Source: Escherichia phage vB_EcoM-S1P5QW. Taken from it: a DNA stretch of 64,000 bases. The notes under the pieces are model-generated. The model worked only from the letters and a program-made list of their open reading frames with translations, made no database searches and had not been told where the DNA came from. Position numbers and translations under genes: made by a program. The DNA lies in the sequence record OL956808.1. One strand, written 5' to 3'. Shown piece after piece: positions 3,222 through 29,533 of this stretch; position 1 is the stretch's first letter; the number at the start of each line of letters is the position of its first letter.

Positions 3222-3668
3222 ATGATTACAGTAGATAAGTGGTTTAGAATTAATCGTGCTGATACAGGGCTGTGTAATTACTGGCCGGAACTTAGTGCAG
3301 GTACTGTCTTTAAAGTTCGTGAACTTGCAAAAGAATGTGAAGATGATATAGAACCTGATACTGGAATTATTGAAATTGAACTTTCTGATGGAAAGATTAT
3401 TAACATCTATGATAAGCCAATTACGTATTGGTGCTTGTGGAATACTGAATCAGTCGAAAATGGCGAAATTGAAGAAGTTGTAGAGCGAACTAATCAAGTT
3501 GTTCAGAAGCCTAAAGCCGGTTTTCAAGGTGAACGTATTTCATACGCATTAGCTAAATCGGCGTTGAAAAAAGATATTGATGATTACGAAGGAAATTTGA
3601 TGCAAGCTGCGGCAGAATATATTGAATGGCTTGAAACTCAAATTTCTTTTTCTGACCGAGCATTTTAA
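3222..3668 (+). CDS. hypothetical protein (148 aa)
   Basis: ATG with GGAG 7 nt upstream; track start is a TTG. Confidence 0.4.
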   Translation: MITVDKWFRINRADTGLCNYWPELSAGTVFKVRELAKECEDDIEPDTGIIEIELSDGKIINIYDKPITYWCLWNTESVENGEIEEVVERTNQVVQKPKAGFQGERISYALAKSALKKDIDDYEGNLMQAAAEYIEWLETQISFSDRAF

Positions 3669-3717
3669 TACTTGAAAATAATAAATACCCTTATCTATTT
3701 AAGGTAAGGGTTTTATT

Positions 3718-4191
3718 ATGTTATTGACTGGCAAATTATATAAAGAAGAAAAACAGAAATTTTATGATGCACAAAACGGTAAATGCTTAATTTGCCAACG
3801 AGAACTAAATCCTGATGTTCAAGCTAATCACCTCGACCATGACCATGAATTAAATGGACCAAAAGCAGGAAAGGTACGTGGATTGCTTTGTAATCTCTGC
3901 AATGCCGCAGAAGGTCAAATGAAGCACAAATTTAATCGTTCTGGCTTAAAGGGACAAGGTGTTGATTATCTTGAATGGTTAGAAAATTTACTTACTTATT
4001 TAAAATCCGATTACACCCAAAATAATATTCACCCTAACTTTGTTGGAGATAAAACAAAGGAATTTTCTCGTTTAGGAAAAGAGGAAATGATGGCTGAGAT
4101 GCTTCAAAGAGGATTTGAATATAATGAATCTGACACCAAAACACAGTTAATAGCTTCATTTAAGAAGCAGCTTAGAAAGAGTTTAAAATGA
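3718..4191 (+). CDS. 49: endonuclease VII (Holliday junction resolvase)
   Basis: 157 aa, sequence recognised as T4 gp49; ATGA overlap with nrdD. Confidence 0.9.
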   Translation: MLLTGKLYKEEKQKFYDAQNGKCLICQRELNPDVQANHLDHDHELNGPKAGKVRGLLCNLCNAAEGQMKHKFNRSGLKGQGVDYLEWLENLLTYLKSDYTQNNIHPNFVGDKTKEFSRLGKEEMMAEMLQRGFEYNESDTKTQLIASFKKQLRKSLK

Positions 4192-6005
4192 CAATTGAAA
4201 AAGAAATTGAAGGATTGATTCATAAAACTAATAAAGACCTTTTAAACGAGAATGCTAATAAAGATTCTCGTGTTTTTCCAACTCAACGGGACCTTATGGC
4301 TGGTATTGTGTCTAAACACATTGCCAAAAATATGGTCCCGTCTTTTATTATGAAAGCGCATGAAAGCGGAATTATTCATTTCCATGATATTGATTATTCC
4401 CCTGCTCTTCCATTTACTAATTGTTGTTTAGTAGATTTAAAAGGAATGCTTGAGAACGGATTTAAGCTTGGTAATGCACAGATTGAAACTCCTAAATCAA
4501 TTGGAGTTGCTACTGCAATTATGGCACAAATTACTGCACAGGTTGCTTCCCATCAATACGGCGGAACGACTTTTGCTAATGTAGATAAAGTACTTTCTCC
4601 TTATGTTAAACGCACCTATGCAAAACATATTGAGGATGCAGAAAAATGGCAAATCGCTGATGCGTTGAATTATGCTCAATCTAAAACAGAAAAAGACGTA
4701 TACGATGCATTCCAAGCTTATGAATATGAAGTAAATACTCTCTTTAGTTCAAACGGGCAAACACCTTTTGTAACAATTACATTTGGTACAGGAACTGACT
4801 GGACTGAACGAATGATTCAGAAAGCAATTCTGAAAAATCGTATTAAAGGTCTCGGTCGTGATGGGATAACTCCTATTTTTCCTAAGCTTGTTATGTTCGT
4901 CGAAGAAGGCGTTAATCTTTACAAAGACGATCCGAATTACGACATTAAGCAACTTGCTTTAGAGTGTGCAAGCAAAAGGATGTATCCTGATATTATTTCA
5001 GCTAAGAATAATAAAGCTATCACTGGTTCATCTGTTCCTGTTTCTCCAATGGGTTGCCGTAGTTTCTTGAGCGTATGGAAAGATTCGACTGGTAATGAAA
5101 TTCTTGATGGACGTAATAATCTTGGTGTTGTAACACTGAATCTTCCTCGCATTGCATTAGATTCTTATATTGGAACACAATTTAACGAACAGAAATTTGT
5201 TGAATTATTCAATGAACGAATGGATTTATGTTTTGAAGCTTTGATGTGTAGAATTAGTTCCTTAAAAGGAGTTAAAGCGACTGTTGCTCCTATTCTTTAC
5301 CAAGAAGGTGCATTCGGGGTTCGTCTTAAACCTGATGACGATATAATTGAGTTATTTAAAAACGGCAGAAGTTCAGTGTCTTTAGGATACATAGGTATTC
5401 ATGAATTGAATATTCTTGTTGGTCGTGACATTGGACAAGAAATTTTAACTAAAATGAATGCTCATCTTAAACAGTGGACTGAAAGAACCGGATTTGCTTT
5501 TAGTTTATATTCGACTCCTGCTGAAAACCTTTGTTATCGCTTCTGTAAACTCGATACAGAAAAATATGGAAGCGTAAAAGATGTTACCGATAAAGGTTGG
5601 TACACTAACAGTTTCCATGTTTCAGTAGAAGAAAATATTACTCCGTTTGAAAAGATTTCTCGTGAAGCGCCATATCATTTCATTGCGACAGGTGGTCACA
5701 TTTCTTATGTTGAACTTCCTGATATGAAAAATAACTTAAAAGGTCTTGAGGCCGTGTGGGATTATGCTGCACAGCATTTAGATTATTTTGGTGTTAATAT
5801 GCCGGTAGATAAATGTTTTACATGTGGAAGTACCCATGAAATGACTCCTACTGAAAACGGATTTGTTTGTTCTATTTGTGGAGAAACTGATCCTAAAAAG
5901 ATGAACACAATAAGAAGAACATGTGGTTATTTGGGAAATCCGAACGAACGCGGATTTAATCTCGGTAAAAATAAAGAAATCATGCATAGGGTTAAACACC
6001 AATGA
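4188..6005 (+). CDS. nrdD: anaerobic ribonucleoside-triphosphate reductase (class III), uninterrupted
   Basis: 605 aa continuous ORF; C-terminal glycyl-radical motif RRTCGYLG; zinc CxxC pairs. Confidence 0.95.
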   Translation: MTIEKEIEGLIHKTNKDLLNENANKDSRVFPTQRDLMAGIVSKHIAKNMVPSFIMKAHESGIIHFHDIDYSPALPFTNCCLVDLKGMLENGFKLGNAQIETPKSIGVATAIMAQITAQVASHQYGGTTFANVDKVLSPYVKRTYAKHIEDAEKWQIADALNYAQSKTEKDVYDAFQAYEYEVNTLFSSNGQTPFVTITFGTGTDWTERMIQKAILKNRIKGLGRDGITPIFPKLVMFVEEGVNLYKDDPNYDIKQLALECASKRMYPDIISAKNNKAITGSSVPVSPMGCRSFLSVWKDSTGNEILDGRNNLGVVTLNLPRIALDSYIGTQFNEQKFVELFNERMDLCFEALMCRISSLKGVKATVAPILYQEGAFGVRLKPDDDIIELFKNGRSSVSLGYIGIHELNILVGRDIGQEILTKMNAHLKQWTERTGFAFSLYSTPAENLCYRFCKLDTEKYGSVKDVTDKGWYTNSFHVSVEENITPFEKISREAPYHFIATGGHISYVELPDMKNNLKGLEAVWDYAAQHLDYFGVNMPVDKCFTCGSTHEMTPTENGFVCSICGETDPKKMNTIRRTCGYLGNPNERGFNLGKNKEIMHRVKHQ

Positions 6006-10507: not shown

Positions 10508-11710
10508 ATGAAAGTATGTATTTTTATGGCTCGAGGTCTTGAAGGTTGTGGTGTAACAAAATTCTCACTCGAGCAACGTGATTGGTTTATTAAAAATAGT
10601 CATGAAGTGACTTTGGTTTATGCTAAAGATAAATCATTTACTCGTAATTGCGCGCATGATTATAAATCATTTTCAATTCCGGTTTTATTGGCAAAAGAAT
10701 ATGATAAAACACTTAAGCTGGTAAATGATTGTGATATTCTAATTATCAATTCAGTTCCTGCTACTTCGGTTGAAGAAGACACGATTAATAACTATAAAAA
10801 AATTATTGATAACATTAAACCTTCTGTTCGTGTTGTAGTTTATCAACATGACCATTCTTCTCTTTCTTTGCGTCGAAATTTGGGATTAGAAGAAACTGTT
10901 CGTCGAGCTGATGTTATTTTTAGCCATTCTGATAATGGTGATTTTAATAAAGTTCTGATGAAAGAGTGGTATCCAGAAACTGTTTCTCTGTTTGATGATA
11001 TTGAAGAAGCACCGACCGTATATAACTTTCAGCCTCCTATGGATATTGCGAAGGTTCGATCAACCTACTGGAAAGATGTTTCTGAAATTAACATGAATAT
11101 CAACCGTTGGATTGGTCGTACGACTACATGGAAAGGTTTTTATCAGATGTTTGATTTTCACGAAAAACATCTTAAACCTGCAGGACTAAGTACTATTATG
11201 GAAGGTCTGGAACGTTCTCCAGCGTTCATTCCTATTAAAGAAAAAGGAATTCCATACGAGTATTATCGTCTTCATCAAGTAGACCAAATTAAAATTGCTC
11301 CTAATTTGCCAACGCAAATTCTTGACCGTTATGTAAATAGCGAAATGCTTGAACGTATGAGTAAATCCGGATTTGGTTATCAGTTGAGTAAGTTGGATAA
11401 AAAATATCTACAGCGCTCTTTAGAATATACTCATCTCGAGCTTGGTGCATGTGGAACAATTCCGGTATTTTGGAAATCTACTGGCGAAAATTTAAAATTC
11501 CGTGTTGATAATACTCCTTTGACCTCGCATGATAGCGGTATCATTTGGTTTGATGAAAATGATATGGAATCAACATTTGAACGTATTAAAGAACTGTCAT
11601 CTGACCGAGCTCTTTATGACCGTGAGCGAGAAAAAGCATATGAATTTTTGTATCAGCATCAAGATTCAAGCTTCTGCTTTAAAGAACAGTTTGACATTAT
11701 TACAAAATAA
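10508..11710 (+). CDS. agt: DNA alpha-glucosyltransferase
   Basis: 400 aa, recognised as T4 alpha-gt; AAGAGGA SD. Confidence 0.9.
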   Translation: MKVCIFMARGLEGCGVTKFSLEQRDWFIKNSHEVTLVYAKDKSFTRNCAHDYKSFSIPVLLAKEYDKTLKLVNDCDILIINSVPATSVEEDTINNYKKIIDNIKPSVRVVVYQHDHSSLSLRRNLGLEETVRRADVIFSHSDNGDFNKVLMKEWYPETVSLFDDIEEAPTVYNFQPPMDIAKVRSTYWKDVSEINMNINRWIGRTTTWKGFYQMFDFHEKHLKPAGLSTIMEGLERSPAFIPIKEKGIPYEYYRLHQVDQIKIAPNLPTQILDRYVNSEMLERMSKSGFGYQLSKLDKKYLQRSLEYTHLELGACGTIPVFWKSTGENLKFRVDNTPLTSHDSGIIWFDENDMESTFERIKELSSDRALYDREREKAYEFLYQHQDSSFCFKEQFDIITK

Positions 11711-15285: not shown

Positions 15286-15675
15286 ATGACTAAAATTACT
15301 GTGAATTATACTGTTGATGTAAAAGATATTCAGCCAAAACACGTGCGTTCTGAATCAAATCCACAAAACCAAAATAAAATCCGTCGAGCATGGGTTTTGT
15401 CTCTTTCTGATAACGCAATGGAAGTTATTCAGAACAAAATTAAATCTGCACCTGCTCGTCATGCGTATTATGAAGCTATCGATCGTGAAGTAAGTAATAA
15501 ATGGATTGAACTAATGCGCAAACATACTACAGAATCTCTAAACGCCGGTGCTAAATTTATTATGACTTCATGTGGTGAACGCCTTGAAGATGATTATTGC
15601 GGTAATGCAGATGAACGTCTGATTGTTGCTGCACAAATTGTTGCGGAAACAATTGTGGCCGAGTTTAATAAATGA
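15286..15675 (+). CDS. rpbA: RNA polymerase-binding protein RpbA
   Basis: 129 aa, position upstream of gene 45. Confidence 0.7.
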
Positions 15676-16559
15676 ATTTAGTATATCTTATTAGCTTTCC
15701 AGAGCGGGAAGCTAAAAATATTTTTCCGTGTTATTATATAGGTTCAAAAATTAACGCAATTTTCGATGGAACAAATATAATTGATTCAGCTGGAAAGATT
15801 TATACTGGAAGCGTGTCATCGAGTTATAGCGATGAATATTTTGAACTTATTAAAACCACTAAATATACCGTCAAAATTTTAGCTGAAACTATATTAGATC
15901 CAAGAAAATTGGAGAGATTTTTTCAATTAAAAGTTAAAGCAAAGAGTAATATAAAATATTTTAATAAAGCATACGCAGATGAAAATACTTTAATTGGTGC
16001 TAAAGGATATGGAACATATAAAAATGTTTTAACTGGAAAAATTGTAAAGCTTTCGCAATCTGAAATTACGCCTGAGTATGTCGGTATTCGTAAAGGTTAC
16101 AAACATAGTTCTGAAGTAAAATACAAAATATCTAATTCAATGAAGAATCACTGGACCGATGAGAAAAAGCTTAAACTCTCAAATAAGATGAAATTGAAAT
16201 ATCTTGATTGTAGTTATGCTAAAAAGTTTAGTGATATAATGAATTCAGAAAGTGTAAGATCAAAAATTTCTAAATCTCAAAAAGAATTATGGAATAATGC
16301 TGAAAGAAGACAGAGAGCTTCAATTCAAGCAACTGTTAGAAATAATTTACCGGAATTCAAATCAAAATTTAGAAAATCTAAAGCTAGAGGAACTTGGATT
16401 GAACATGAAGATGAATTAAAATCTTTATGGCATGCTTACGGAAAACCAAGTTATAATAAATTTCGTAAAATTGCAGTAGCTAATGGGTTTAACGACGAAT
16501 CTTATCAGGGTGCTGTACGGTCCTGGTCTAACTATTATGTAAATAGGAAATTGAAATGA
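15672..16559 (+). CDS. homing-endonuclease-like protein (degenerate GIY-YIG-like N-terminus, NUMOD3-like repeats)
   Basis: 295 aa; VYL...YYIGS near N-terminus; [11 protein letters not shown] and [12 protein letters not shown] repeats; not present at this position in T4 as I recall. Confidence 0.5.
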
Positions 16560-17242
16560 AATTATCTAAAGACACACTGAATATTTTGAAAAATTTCGCT
16601 ACTATTAACTCTGGCATTATGCTTAAATCAGGTCAATTTATTATGACTCGCGCAGTTAATGGTACAACTTATGCAGAAGCAAATATTTCTGACACTATTG
16701 ATTTTGATGTAGCGATTTACGATTTGAACGGTTTTCTCGGTATTCTGTCTCTAGTTAATGATGATGCAGAAATTTCCCAGTCAGAAGATGGAAATATTAA
16801 AATTGCTGATGCCCGCTCAACAATTTTTTGGCCAGCAGCCGATCCGAGTACAGTAGTTGCTCCTAATAAACCAATTCCATTCCCGGTAGCATCTGTTGTT
16901 ACTGAAATTAAAGCTGAAGACCTTCAACAACTGTTGCGTGTATCTCGTGGTCTGCAAATTGATACAATTGCTATCACGGTAAAAGAAGGTAAAATCGTAA
17001 TTAATGGTTTTAATAAAGTAGAAGATTCTGCTCTTACCCGTGTTAAATATTCTTTGACTCTTGGTGATTATGATGGTGAAAATACATTTAATTTCATTAT
17101 CAATATGGCAAATATGAAAATGCAACCAGGAAATTATAAACTTCTGCTCTGGGCAAAAGGTAAACAAGGCGCTGCTAAATTTGAAGGTGAACACGCGAAT
17201 TATGTAGTAGCTCTTGAAGCTGATTCTACCCACGATTTTTAA
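16556..17242 (+). CDS. 45: sliding clamp gp45
   Basis: 228 aa, recognised as T4 gp45. Confidence 0.95.
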   Translation: MKLSKDTLNILKNFATINSGIMLKSGQFIMTRAVNGTTYAEANISDTIDFDVAIYDLNGFLGILSLVNDDAEISQSEDGNIKIADARSTIFWPAADPSTVVAPNKPIPFPVASVVTEIKAEDLQQLLRVSRGLQIDTIAITVKEGKIVINGFNKVEDSALTRVKYSLTLGDYDGENTFNFIINMANMKMQPGNYKLLLWAKGKQGAAKFEGEHANYVVALEADSTHDF

Positions 17243-22386: not shown

Positions 22387-22638
22387 ATGAAAAATATTCA
22401 AACTAATTTTATTCAAAATTTAAAAGTTGTTAACGCAGAAAAAGCTAATAAACTCTTTAAAGTTAAAGAATTTGAAAATGAAGGTAACACTTACGGTATT
22501 ATAGAACAAAATGGAATGGTTACTGGATTAGAAATTTATAATGGTAAAGGAAAATTTCAGTCACAGCCAATTTCTGTTATGGGTGTAAGAAAAGGAATTA
22601 AAACTGAAGATGCTTTAAAGTTATTTGTTAAGTTTTAA
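22387..22638 (+). CDS. hypothetical protein
   Basis: 83-aa ORF after an early promoter, GGAGGAA SD. Confidence 0.45.
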   Translation: MKNIQTNFIQNLKVVNAEKANKLFKVKEFENEGNTYGIIEQNGMVTGLEIYNGKGKFQSQPISVMGVRKGIKTEDALKLFVKF

Positions 22639-23443: not shown

Positions 23444-24184
23444 ATGATTAGTGACTCTATGACAGTTGAAGAAATCCGTCTTCATTTGGGGCTTGCATTA
23501 AAGGAAAAAGATTTCGTAGTTGATAAAACTGGTGTTAAAACTGTTGAAATTATTGGCGCATCATTTGTAGCAGATGAACCCTTTATTTTTGGCGCTCTTA
23601 ATGATGAATACATTCAGCGTGAACTTGAATGGTACAAGTCTCAAAGTCTGTTTGTTAAAGATATTCCAGGTGAAACACCAAAGATTTGGCAGCAGGTAGC
23701 ATCTTCTAAAGGCGAAATTAACTCGAATTATGGTTGGGCTATTTGGTCAGAAGATAACTATGCCCAGTATGATATGTGTTTAGCTGAACTTGGTCAAAAT
23801 CCTGATTCTCGACGTGGTATCATGATTTATACTCGTCCATCTATGCAGTTTGACTATAATAAAGATGGTATGTCAGATTTCATGTGCACGAATACAGTAC
23901 AGTACCTGATTCGTGACAAGAAAGTCAATGCAGTAGTAAGCATGCGCTCAAATGACGTGGTCTTCGGATTCCGTAATGATTATGCATGGCAAAAATACGT
24001 ATTAGATAAATTAGTATCTGATTTGAATGCAGGCGATTCAACTCGTCAGTATAAAGCAGGTTCTATTATATGGAATGTTGGAAGTCTTCATGTATATTCT
24101 CGTCATTTTTACTTGGTTGATCATTGGTGGAATACTGGCGAAACTCATATTGTGAAAAAAGACTATAAAGGTGAGTGGAAATGA
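23444..24184 (+). CDS. 42: dCMP hydroxymethylase
   Basis: 246 aa, thymidylate-synthase-like fold, recognised as T4 gp42. Confidence 0.9.
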   Translation: MISDSMTVEEIRLHLGLALKEKDFVVDKTGVKTVEIIGASFVADEPFIFGALNDEYIQRELEWYKSQSLFVKDIPGETPKIWQQVASSKGEINSNYGWAIWSEDNYAQYDMCLAELGQNPDSRRGIMIYTRPSMQFDYNKDGMSDFMCTNTVQYLIRDKKVNAVVSMRSNDVVFGFRNDYAWQKYVLDKLVSDLNAGDSTRQYKAGSIIWNVGSLHVYSRHFYLVDHWWNTGETHIVKKDYKGEWK

Positions 24185-25023
24185 TTCAATTCGTAATTCC
24201 AAGTTATCAACGTGTCGGGGCAGTTTCTGCCCTTGATATGTTTCCGACTGATTATGAACCGCATATTGTAGTGCGTGAACACGAAGAAAAAGCTTATTAT
24301 GATGCTTATGGGTCTAGAGCTAAAATTATAACTATTCCTGATGATGTAAACGGAATTGCCGGTACTCGTAAAGCAATTACTGATATGTATGCAGGTCAAC
24401 GAATTTGGATGATTGACGATGATACTACTATTCGTATGAGTTCAATGCGAAAAAGAGATGACCGTCGTTGTGTGGATAAAGTCAATCAATTGACTCATGA
24501 ACAGTTCTATGAATTGATTCAATATGTTGAGGATGCCATGGATTGTGGGTATTATCATGGCCATGCTCGTCTACCTATTTTTAAAATTACTTCATCTTGG
24601 GGCAATTATCGTGAAAATTCATATGGATTCACGAATACATGGTATGACCTCGGAAAACTTACTACAGAACAAATTGGGTATGGAAAAATTGATTTATGCG
24701 AAGATATGTATGCATTTCTCAATTTAATTAGTCAAGGTTATCCGCATTTGGCCTTGTTCAAATATCTGGTTGTATCTGGAAAAGCACAAGCTCCTGGCGG
24801 GTGTAGTTCAATTCGTAGTAATTCTAAACATAATAGAGCGCTTGAGCAAATCAATAGAGAGTTTCCAGAGCAAGCTCGTTGGAAAACTTCTAATATTGAA
24901 AAACGAAAATCGTTGGGTGAAGAAGACGAGCCATTAAAGGTTCTTCGCATGTGTGTTTCACGTAAAGAAAAATCAGAAGCATTTCATAAGTTTAATGCTA
25001 TTCATCCAATAGCAGTTGATTAA
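24181..25023 (+). CDS. putative DNA glycosyltransferase (GT-A-like, DxD), occupying the T4 beta-gt locus
   Basis: 281 aa from ATG overlapping gene 42 stop; IDDDTT motif; not T4 beta-gt (351 aa). Confidence 0.55.
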   Translation: MIQFVIPSYQRVGAVSALDMFPTDYEPHIVVREHEEKAYYDAYGSRAKIITIPDDVNGIAGTRKAITDMYAGQRIWMIDDDTTIRMSSMRKRDDRRCVDKVNQLTHEQFYELIQYVEDAMDCGYYHGHARLPIFKITSSWGNYRENSYGFTNTWYDLGKLTTEQIGYGKIDLCEDMYAFLNLISQGYPHLALFKYLVVSGKAQAPGGCSSIRSNSKHNRALEQINREFPEQARWKTSNIEKRKSLGEEDEPLKVLRMCVSRKEKSEAFHKFNAIHPIAVD

Positions 25024-25100
25024 TGCCTAAATTTATTGTGTTATAATTACTCTATCTTTAACCAGTGAGGAAAATATAATGATGCCTATGGAAAAAATGA

Positions 25101-26282
25101 ATGTCTATTGCAGATTTAAAATCCCGTTTGATTAAAGCTTCCACTTCTAAAATGACTGCTGAACTGACTACATCTAAATTCTTTAATGAAAAGGATGTAA
25201 TCCGTACAAAAATCCCAATGCTTAATATTGCTATTTCTGGTGCGATTGATGGCGGCATGCAGTCTGGTTTAACTATTTTCGCAGGGCCTTCTAAACACTT
25301 TAAATCAAATATGTCTTTGACTATGGTTGCGGCATATTTGAACAAATATCCTGACGCGGTTTGTCTATTCTATGATAGCGAATTTGGTATTACTCCAGCT
25401 TATTTACGATCCATGGGAGTTGACCCGGAACGAGTAATTCATACGCCAATTCAGTCAGTTGAACAGCTGAAAATTGATATGGTGAACCAGCTTGAAGCTA
25501 TTGAGCGTGGTGAAAAGGTTATTGTATTCATCGACTCAATCGGTAATATGGCTTCTAAGAAAGAAACGGAAGATGCCTTGAATGAAAAATCTGTGGCAGA
25601 TATGACTCGTGCTAAATCACTGAAGTCATTATTCCGTATTGTTACTCCTTATTTTAGCATTAAAAATATTCCATGTGTTGCGGTTAACCATACAATTGAA
25701 ACAATTGAAATGTTTAGTAAAACCGTGATGACAGGTGGTACAGGCGTAATGTATTCGGCTGATACTGTATTCATTATCGGTAAACGCCAGATTAAAGATG
25801 GTTCTGATCTTCAGGGGTATCAATTTGTTCTAAATGTAGAAAAATCTCGTACCGTTAAAGAAAAAAGTAAATTCTTTATTGATGTTAAATTTGACGGTGG
25901 TATCGATCCTTATTCTGGATTGTTAGATATGGCTCTAGAATTAGGATTTGTTGTAAAACCTAAGAATGGTTGGTATGCTCGTGAATTTCTTGACGAAGAA
26001 ACTGGCGAGATGATTCGCGAAGAAAAATCTTGGCGTGCAAAAGATACCAACTGCACTACATTCTGGGGTCCTTTATTTAAGCATCAACCATTCCGAGATG
26101 CTATTAAACGTGCTTATCAGTTAGGTGCTATTGATAGTAATGAAATTGTTGAAGCTGAAGTTGATGAATTGATTAACTCAAAGGTTGAAAAATTTAAATC
26201 TCCAGAAAGTAAAAGTAAATCAGCAGCTGATTTAGAAACTGACCTCGAGCAGTTAAGTGATATGGAAGAATTTAATGAATAA
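25101..26282 (+). CDS. uvsX: recombinase UvsX (RecA-like)
   Basis: 393 aa, Walker A GPSKHFKS, recognised as T4 UvsX. Confidence 0.95.
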   Translation: MSIADLKSRLIKASTSKMTAELTTSKFFNEKDVIRTKIPMLNIAISGAIDGGMQSGLTIFAGPSKHFKSNMSLTMVAAYLNKYPDAVCLFYDSEFGITPAYLRSMGVDPERVIHTPIQSVEQLKIDMVNQLEAIERGEKVIVFIDSIGNMASKKETEDALNEKSVADMTRAKSLKSLFRIVTPYFSIKNIPCVAVNHTIETIEMFSKTVMTGGTGVMYSADTVFIIGKRQIKDGSDLQGYQFVLNVEKSRTVKEKSKFFIDVKFDGGIDPYSGLLDMALELGFVVKPKNGWYAREFLDEETGEMIREEKSWRAKDTNCTTFWGPLFKHQPFRDAIKRAYQLGAIDSNEIVEAEVDELINSKVEKFKSPESKSKSAADLETDLEQLSDMEEFNE

Positions 26283-28613: not shown

Positions 28614-28907
28614 ATGAAAAAATTTATTTTTGCTACAATTTTTACTTTGGCTTCTTGTGCTGCTCAGCCTGCTATGGCAGGTTATGATAAAGATTTGTGT
28701 GAATGGTCTATGACTGCAGATCAGACTGAAGTTGAAACTCAAATTGAAGCGGATATTATGAATATCGTTGAGCGTGATCGTCCTGAAATGAAAGCTGAAG
28801 TACAAAAACAGCTTAAGTCTGGTGGTGTAATGCAGTATAATTATGTTCTGTATTGCGATAAAAACTTTAATAACAAAAATATCATCGCTGAAGTGGTAGG
28901 TGAATAA
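28614..28907 (+). CDS. sp: Spackle-like periplasmic protein
   Basis: 97 aa, N-terminal signal peptide, position and size as in T4. Confidence 0.55.
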   Translation: MKKFIFATIFTLASCAAQPAMAGYDKDLCEWSMTADQTEVETQIEADIMNIVERDRPEMKAEVQKQLKSGGVMQYNYVLYCDKNFNNKNIIAEVVGE

Positions 28908-29533
28908 TGCTTTATCAAATGCACAAGTGCAAAGATACATACAAATATAAAGGTGCCCAGTGTTATATCATTAATCGTGAAAACGCGGGTCCAGGTCATT
29001 CGCATCAATCACGGTTTGTATTCGTTAAAAACAATGAAATTATAGCAGTTGCTAATTACATGCTTGTGACTAATGATGTTAATCCGGTGCCTTTTACATA
29101 TTATAATCTAATGGATTTGGCGTACGATTATAATTGGTTTAATCATGACACTTTGGCTCATATCGAAGGCGTAGGATTTGACATCTCTTATTCTAGTTAT
29201 TCGTTGTGTCCTATGAGCCGAGCTCATAAAGAGCCTGAATATTTTTCATTTCGTCGGCGTGTAGACTTTAAACGCAGTACAGAGTATGTCGGTGGAATCT
29301 TTGTTAAAGATAATCGAATTACTCGCATTATTTATCCTTTGGGCTGTGGTCAAAAAGATATTGATGTTGATTTAGACTTTACTGAAAACATCATTAATCA
29401 TATTGCTTCTGTATATTTTGATATTGATCACAAAATTGTAATATGTGGATATGAATTGCCATCTGAAAAACAGTCTAAAGTAAATGTTTCTATTGATGAC
29501 CAAATTTTTAATGCTTTTATGAATAGAGGTTAA
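28907..29533 (+). CDS. hypothetical protein (T4 61.2-like)
   Basis: 208-aa ORF. Confidence 0.5.
   Translation: MLYQMHKCKDTYKYKGAQCYIINRENAGPGHSHQSRFVFVKNNEIIAVANYMLVTNDVNPVPFTYYNLMDLAYDYNWFNHDTLAHIEGVGFDISYSSYSLCPMSRAHKEPEYFSFRRRVDFKRSTEYVGGIFVKDNRITRIIYPLGCGQKDIDVDLDFTENIINHIASVYFDIDHKIVICGYELPSEKQSKVNVSIDDQIFNAFMNRG

Follow-up and report, generated by a model that had tools for sequence, protein, structure and literature searches.

The range of host defences that a T-even phage can escape is set by the type of glycosylation carried on its hmC. The TAGT enzyme of T2 and T6 glucosylates hmC that has already been alpha-glucosylated, giving gentiobiosyl-hmC (PMC13216743). Its gene has been stated explicitly to lie at the position syntenic with b-gt of T4 (PMC13390438), and the replacement of b-gt by a GT-A enzyme at this position is also stated in PMC13216743. 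Among sequenced RB phages, 12 out of 15 were found to carry both alpha-gt and ba-gt (Thomas et al., PMC6024577), and the vast majority of phages encoding glucosyltransferases combine either alpha-gt or beta-gt with TAGT (Ramirez-Chamorro et al., PMC13216743), while the T4-type pair of alpha-gt and beta-gt is found in six phages only in GenBank (PMC13216743). The alpha-gt plus ba-gt combination is the common arrangement in Tequatrovirus, and the T4 pair is a rarity.

The window analysed here (the whole stretch of 64 kb, from a phage genome of approximately 167 kb) contains the following genes of this system:

10508 to 11710, + strand: alpha-gt, DNA alpha-glucosyltransferase (GT-B), 400 aa, full-length match to Pfam PF11440 AGT (E 1.4e-236)
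23444 to 24184, + strand: gene 42, dCMP hydroxymethylase, hmC precursor synthesis, Pfam PF00303 thymidylate-synthase family, annotated in Kha5h, T2 and T6
24181 to 25023, + strand: ba-gt (ggt, TAGT), very probable beta-glucosyl-HMC-alpha-glucosyltransferase, 280 aa, GT-A fold
25101 to 26282, + strand: uvsX, downstream limit of the variable glucosyltransferase slot, Pfam T4_UVSX_C and RecA

The gene at 24181-25023 is very probably a beta-glucosyl-HMC-alpha-glucosyltransferase of the T2/T6 type making alpha-gentiobiosyl-hmC, an enzyme which we take to be EC 2.4.1.28, glucosyl-DNA beta-glucosyltransferase. A second-glucose enzyme in the style of T2 and T6 had been proposed in an initial annotation made from the sequence alone, and this proposal agreed with near-identity to the T2 and T6 proteins, with a match to PHROG 842 ('beta-glucosyl-HMC-alpha-glucosyltransferase', 1.3e-88, residues 1-275) and with the presence of alpha-gt. 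Pfam PF20691 TAGT (TET-associated glycosyltransferase) matched over profile positions 2-205 of 205 at 39.4 bits (gathering threshold 27.5), and no NCBIfam model covers the protein. Over 280 residues, the protein differed from its counterparts in Kha5h, EH2, Solly, T2 and EL at 1, 2, 2, 4 and 9 positions, respectively, and from that of T6 by three substitutions, to which one T6 deposit adds a stop codon. The T2 and T6 enzymes (UniProt Q06717 and Q06718 according to Table 1 of PMC6024577) are likewise of 280 aa (98.6-99% identity), are encoded between gene 42 and uvsX with the same ATGA coupling, and have alpha-gt as partner. The window protein carries R11 (His in T2), H106, S184 and P251 where it departs from T2, and has neither of the changes seen in T6 deposits (the amber at codon 10 in MH550421 and the loss of one Asp from DDD in AP018814).

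The slot between gene 42 and uvsX holds ba-gt in T2, T6, Kha5h, EH2, EL and Solly too. The 2.9-kb stretch spanning gene 42 to uvsX was 99.1% identical to Kha5h and was present at 95% identity or more in over 460 records of Tequatrovirus-like phages, whose annotation commonly names the gene as this enzyme; the ba-gt gene itself reached at least 95% identity in about 470 phage records, at the same position where checked. By tblastn, a homologue was encoded in 688 phage records, including copies of about 65% identity in T4-like phages of Klebsiella, Enterobacter and Salmonella, and the reading frame is therefore no chance ORF. The wider TAGT family numbered 2167 representatives at E <=1e-3 and 748 at <=1e-10. 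It shares with ba-gt the family-invariant residues R11, D80, D175, G186 and G207. In the TET/JBP systems of this family a dioxygenase acts on DNA, whereas here hmC would be made at the nucleotide level by a dCMP hydroxymethylase resembling thymidylate synthase, and the acceptor of ba-gt is a sugar rather than the base.

The reading frame was uninterrupted through 24181-25023 on the + strand. The initial annotation had described a 281-aa protein; the locus and the ORF stood, but the product has 280 aa, 281 being the number of codons including the stop. A program-made ORF list opened the frame at GTG 24175, a start that was dropped because all annotated homologues begin at the ATG overlapping the gene 42 stop, and in Kha5h, T2, EH2, EL and Solly the annotated start is ATG 24181. 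This ATG shares bases with the TGA stop of gene 42 in the tetranucleotide ATGA (24181-24184), through which the two genes are predicted to be translationally coupled. The stretch imm.1-imm-gene 42 was 96% identical to T4 at the nucleotide level. The placement between gene 42 and uvsX, which the initial annotation had also given, was secured on both flanks by Pfam matches. A terminator-like hairpin inside ba-gt (24217-24233) was set aside as being at chance level (1 seen against 0.9 expected), and sigma-70-like promoter matches around the gene scarcely exceeded those in shuffled sequences and were left uninterpreted. Directly after the ba-gt stop (25024-25047), TGCCTA is followed after 12 nt by TATAAT, which by eye resembles a MotA-dependent middle promoter; in T4 promoters of this kind, the -10 element is preceded, at about 12 bp, by a MotA box TGCTTA. 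The pair could be a candidate promoter for uvsX.

In T4, the interval between gene 42 and uvsX is filled by b-gt (351 aa) together with segA, a homing endonuclease gene. Nucleotide collinearity of the window with T4 ended at 24166 and picked up again at 25113, so the interval represents a clean cassette difference. The replaced segment is approximately 0.95 kb in the window (24166-25113, ba-gt) against approximately 1.94 kb in T4 (3556-5498 of the T4 sequence compared; b-gt and the GIY-YIG gene segA), the flanks being 96% (towards gene 42) and 88% (towards uvsX) identical to T4; segA is missing from the window's slot. The similarity to T4 b-gt that would have spoken for the T4 enzyme was found neither by BLASTP, Pfam nor tblastn: BLASTP of T4 b-gt against the ba-gt protein gave a best E of 0.28 over 10 residues, PF09198 (9.4e-98 for T4 b-gt) did not match the ba-gt protein even at E up to 1, and tblastn with T4 b-gt detected no beta-gt homologue in the 64-kb window (best E 1.4). 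The absence of beta-gt thus covers 64 kb of the ~167-kb genome, and beyond this we infer it from relatives. The two enzymes have much in common, both being encoded in the slot downstream of gene 42, both using UDP-glucose as donor with an inverting outcome (beta linkage), and each being the second of its phage's two DNA glucosyltransferases. They differ in acceptor, which is hmC itself for T4 b-gt and the glucose of alpha-glucosyl-hmC for ba-gt, in fold (GT-B, PF09198, versus GT-A) and in sequence, where no similarity exists; the T4 slot also holds segA, which the window slot does not.

Searches for a structural relative by sequence gave little. A phmmer search of ba-gt against PDB sequences returned nothing meaningful (best E 1.1), and the family profile had its best match in the GT2 beta-1,3-glucosyltransferase 9jma (E 0.12, not significant); polycystin matches of the same profile were discarded as spurious. 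No solved structure for the ba-gt/TAGT family was detectable by sequence in these PDB searches, and as the profile match was non-significant, the family could not be placed by sequence alone and a comparison of folds was needed. AlphaFold2 run on an alignment of 132 sequences, taken from the 2167 representatives of an exhaustive profile search (E <=1e-3), gave a model with pLDDT 94.9 and pTM 0.92; the single-sequence run gave an unusable model (pLDDT 39.5). The model contains a single nucleotide-sugar-binding domain of Rossmann-like fold, in which a core strand ends in a DxD, as defines GT-A. For the T6 protein, a published AlphaFold3 model likewise has the GT-A fold and groups as the sister of GT2 (PMC13216743). 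The GT-A-like glycosyltransferase with a DxD that had been suspected from the letters was accordingly recovered in the AlphaFold2 model, the alignment and the published model alike. The residues on which the comparison turns are:

24211 to 24213, + strand: R11, family-invariant Arg just after strand beta-1, Arg in 132/132 and His in T2
24412 to 24429, + strand: IDDDTT with the DxD (D79-D80-D81), predicted metal/UDP-sugar site, D80 in 132/132, D79 and D81 each in 130/132
24703 to 24705, + strand: D175 of the 'CEDMY' (ED) motif, predicted catalytic base, D175 in 132/132, E174 in 103/132

Five residues (R11, D80, D175, G186 and G207) were invariant in all 132 aligned sequences, and all are present in the window protein. 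The IDDDTT motif, which the initial annotation had read correctly, occupies residues 78-83, its counterpart in the GT2 glucosyltransferase 9jma being LDDDD in a weak alignment (E 0.12). From the model and this analogy, D79-D81 are predicted to form the metal/UDP-sugar site. In inverting GT2 enzymes, the Asp of the ED motif serves as catalytic base, and D175 is predicted, by analogy, to play this part in ba-gt as an inverting GT-A enzyme. Inverting GT-A enzymes of GT2 (AvpGT/PglI-like 9jma, SpsA 1h7l and TarP 6h1j) share 7-15% identity with ba-gt, from which they differ in that ba-gt has DNA-linked glucose as acceptor and no membrane or carrier-lipid association.

The window contains the partners that would supply ba-gt, namely gene 42 (23444-24184) and alpha-gt (10508-11710). 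The latter, placed there already by the initial annotation, is intact with its full-length PF11440 match, and was 99.8% identical to that of Solly, 91.3% to T4 record KJ477686, and 91-92% to T4 and EL. In the proposed pathway, gene 42 would produce hm-dCMP, which would then be incorporated into DNA; alpha-gt would glucosylate hmC in alpha linkage with UDP-glucose as donor, the resulting alpha-glucosyl-hmC being the substrate of ba-gt; and ba-gt, again with UDP-glucose as donor, would attach a second glucose to O6 of the first one in an inverting reaction, creating a beta-1,6 linkage. The product would be alpha-gentiobiosyl-hmC. Inversion is needed because a beta-1,6 linkage is made from UDP-alpha-glucose, and it fits a GT2-like GT-A enzyme. 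We infer this chemistry of ba-gt from the literature on T2, T6 and near-identical phages. T6 without ba-gt is presumed to carry alpha-glucosyl-hmC only (PMC11078745; bioRxiv 10.64898/2026.02.25.707755), and its DNA, unlike that of wild-type T6, is degraded by Brig1 (PMC11078745). By LC-MS, Solly, EH2 and related Tequatrovirus contained hmC, alpha-glucosyl-hmC and alpha-gentiobiosyl-hmC, with beta-glucosyl-hmC absent; gentiobiosyl-hmC made up about two thirds in DNA of Solly and EH2 and hmC about one third, alpha-glucosyl-hmC being scarce, while EL-group phages had a 1:2:2 mixture and T2 only about 5% gentiobiosyl-hmC (all PMC13390438), despite a ba-gt 98.6% identical to that of the window. Presence of the ba-gt gene does not, as T2 and the EL group illustrate, set the extent of modification. 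Compared with the Solly/EH2 allele, the window's ba-gt differed at positions 106 and 184 only, both of which are highly variable in the family. Since ba-gt (two variable positions) and alpha-gt (99.8%) nearly match those of Solly and EH2, the DNA of the present phage is predicted to have a profile like theirs, in which gentiobiosyl-hmC accounts for about two thirds and hmC for about one third, alpha-glucosyl-hmC is scarce and beta-glucosyl-hmC absent.

Two other functions were considered for the gene. As a non-homologous stand-in for T4 beta-gt, ba-gt might act on bare hmC, much as TAGT enzymes in TET/JBP-type systems presumably act on a hydroxymethylated base, and yield beta-glucosyl-hmC, a reading suggested by its occupying the exact slot of T4 b-gt, by the naming of Pfam family PF20691 for enzymes associated with base hydroxylases, and by the occurrence of distant TAGTs in some phages that have neither alpha-gt nor beta-gt (PMC13216743). 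However, LC-MS found no beta-glucosyl-hmC in phages whose ba-gt differs from the present one by two residues (PMC13390438), T2, T6 and the Durham phages leave between about one quarter and one third of their hmC bare, a share not to be expected if bare hmC were the substrate, and T6 without ba-gt behaves as a phage with alpha-glucosyl-hmC only (PMC11078745). A direct hmC beta-glucosyltransferase role is extremely improbable and was rejected on the published LC-MS of near-identical phages.

The gene might also be of the right type but weak or inactive here, leaving DNA that is essentially alpha-monoglucosylated as in T2, whose nearly identical gene goes with about 5% gentiobiosyl-hmC; two T6 deposits with apparent lesions suggest in addition that defective alleles circulate in stocks. 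Against this, the window allele retains Q10, R11, the full DDD and all invariant family residues, matches the Solly/EH2 allele, found with about two thirds gentiobiosyl-hmC, everywhere except at the variable positions 106 and 184, and has its start in predicted translational coupling to the early gene 42, so that a T2-like state of the DNA appears very unlikely. A functional T2/T6-type enzyme that extends alpha-glucosyl-hmC to gentiobiosyl-hmC is the reading retained.

The classical T2 and T6 reference alleles deviate at conserved positions where the window allele does not. In T2 (MH751506), ba-gt has H11, identically in eight records (seven T2 deposits and SV76), where Arg is found in 132/132 family members and in the window. 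Relative to the Solly/EH2 allele, the T2 allele carries only R11H and P251S, position 251 being variable. The share of gentiobiosyl-hmC is about 5% in T2 and about 72% in T6, a long-standing puzzle in view of the near identity of their ba-gt proteins. The alpha-gt of T2, as also in the RB phages, is approximately 91% identical to that of T4 (PMC6024577 Table 1), which suggests that it is of the same type as the Solly-like alpha-gt of the window, the comparison being made via T4 only, from the equal identity of ~91% to the T4 gene. R11H is thereby a candidate cause of the difference between about 5% gentiobiosyl-hmC in T2 and about 70% in T6-like phages; such a role is not stated in the literature cited here. 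It is conceivable, though we hold it only tentatively and with somewhat more doubt than belief, that T2 is a hypomorphic outlier owing to R11H and that wild Tequatrovirus, including the present phage, are T6-like and heavily gentiobiosylated. For T6, deposit MH550421 has an amber at codon 10 of ba-gt (CAG to TAG, region 4951-4953), with the CDS annotated from Met20, and AP018814/NC_054907 (182-1021) has a 3-nt deletion in which one GAT of DDD is lost, changing IDDDTT to IDDTT. Such lesions are odd for the textbook phage with 72% gentiobiosyl-hmC, and could reflect stock drift, selection or sequencing error.

The initial annotation had further expected that the modification scheme changes which host systems the DNA can evade, and such consequences are documented in the literature for Brig1, BapA and GmrSD. 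Gentiobiosyl-hmC protects DNA from the Brig1 glycosylase in vitro, and loss of ba-gt makes T6 more sensitive, while T6 is still Brig1-sensitive in vivo, during a transient alpha-glucosyl stage (PMC11078745). BapA is unable to deglucosylate gentiobiosyl-hmC (bioRxiv 10.64898/2026.02.25.707755), and GmrSD still targets gentiobiosyl-hmC DNA (PMC13216743). Recognising ba-gt in a genome predicts a defence-evasion profile and is useful for typing in phage therapy, the link between genotype and modification having already been published. The overall reading of the initial annotation was right; synteny, GT-A fold, gentiobiosyl-hmC and effects on defence were all known already, and the ba-gt of the window is an ordinary finding that adds no new biology.

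Further genes were noted elsewhere in the window. An ORF of 295 aa (15672-16559, + strand) is flanked by rpbA (15286-15675) and gene 45 (16556-17242) and shares 4 nt with each; it matched PHROG 655 'homing endonuclease' (4.3e-33) and had weak similarity to T4 SegA (tblastn E 0.001), and is probably a mobile seg-like endonuclease insertion. An 83-aa ORF (22387-22638, + strand) between the DNA polymerase gene (gene 43) and imm.1 matched PHROG 18567 (function unknown), and has an annotated counterpart in T2 (RB51ORF048) and in Kha5h, with no CDS annotated there in T4. The gp61.2 homologue (28907-29533, + strand) matched Pfam PF23813 Anti-DarT factor A (AdfA) over its full length (E 1.5e-136), which makes it a predicted counter-defence gene near the modification genes.
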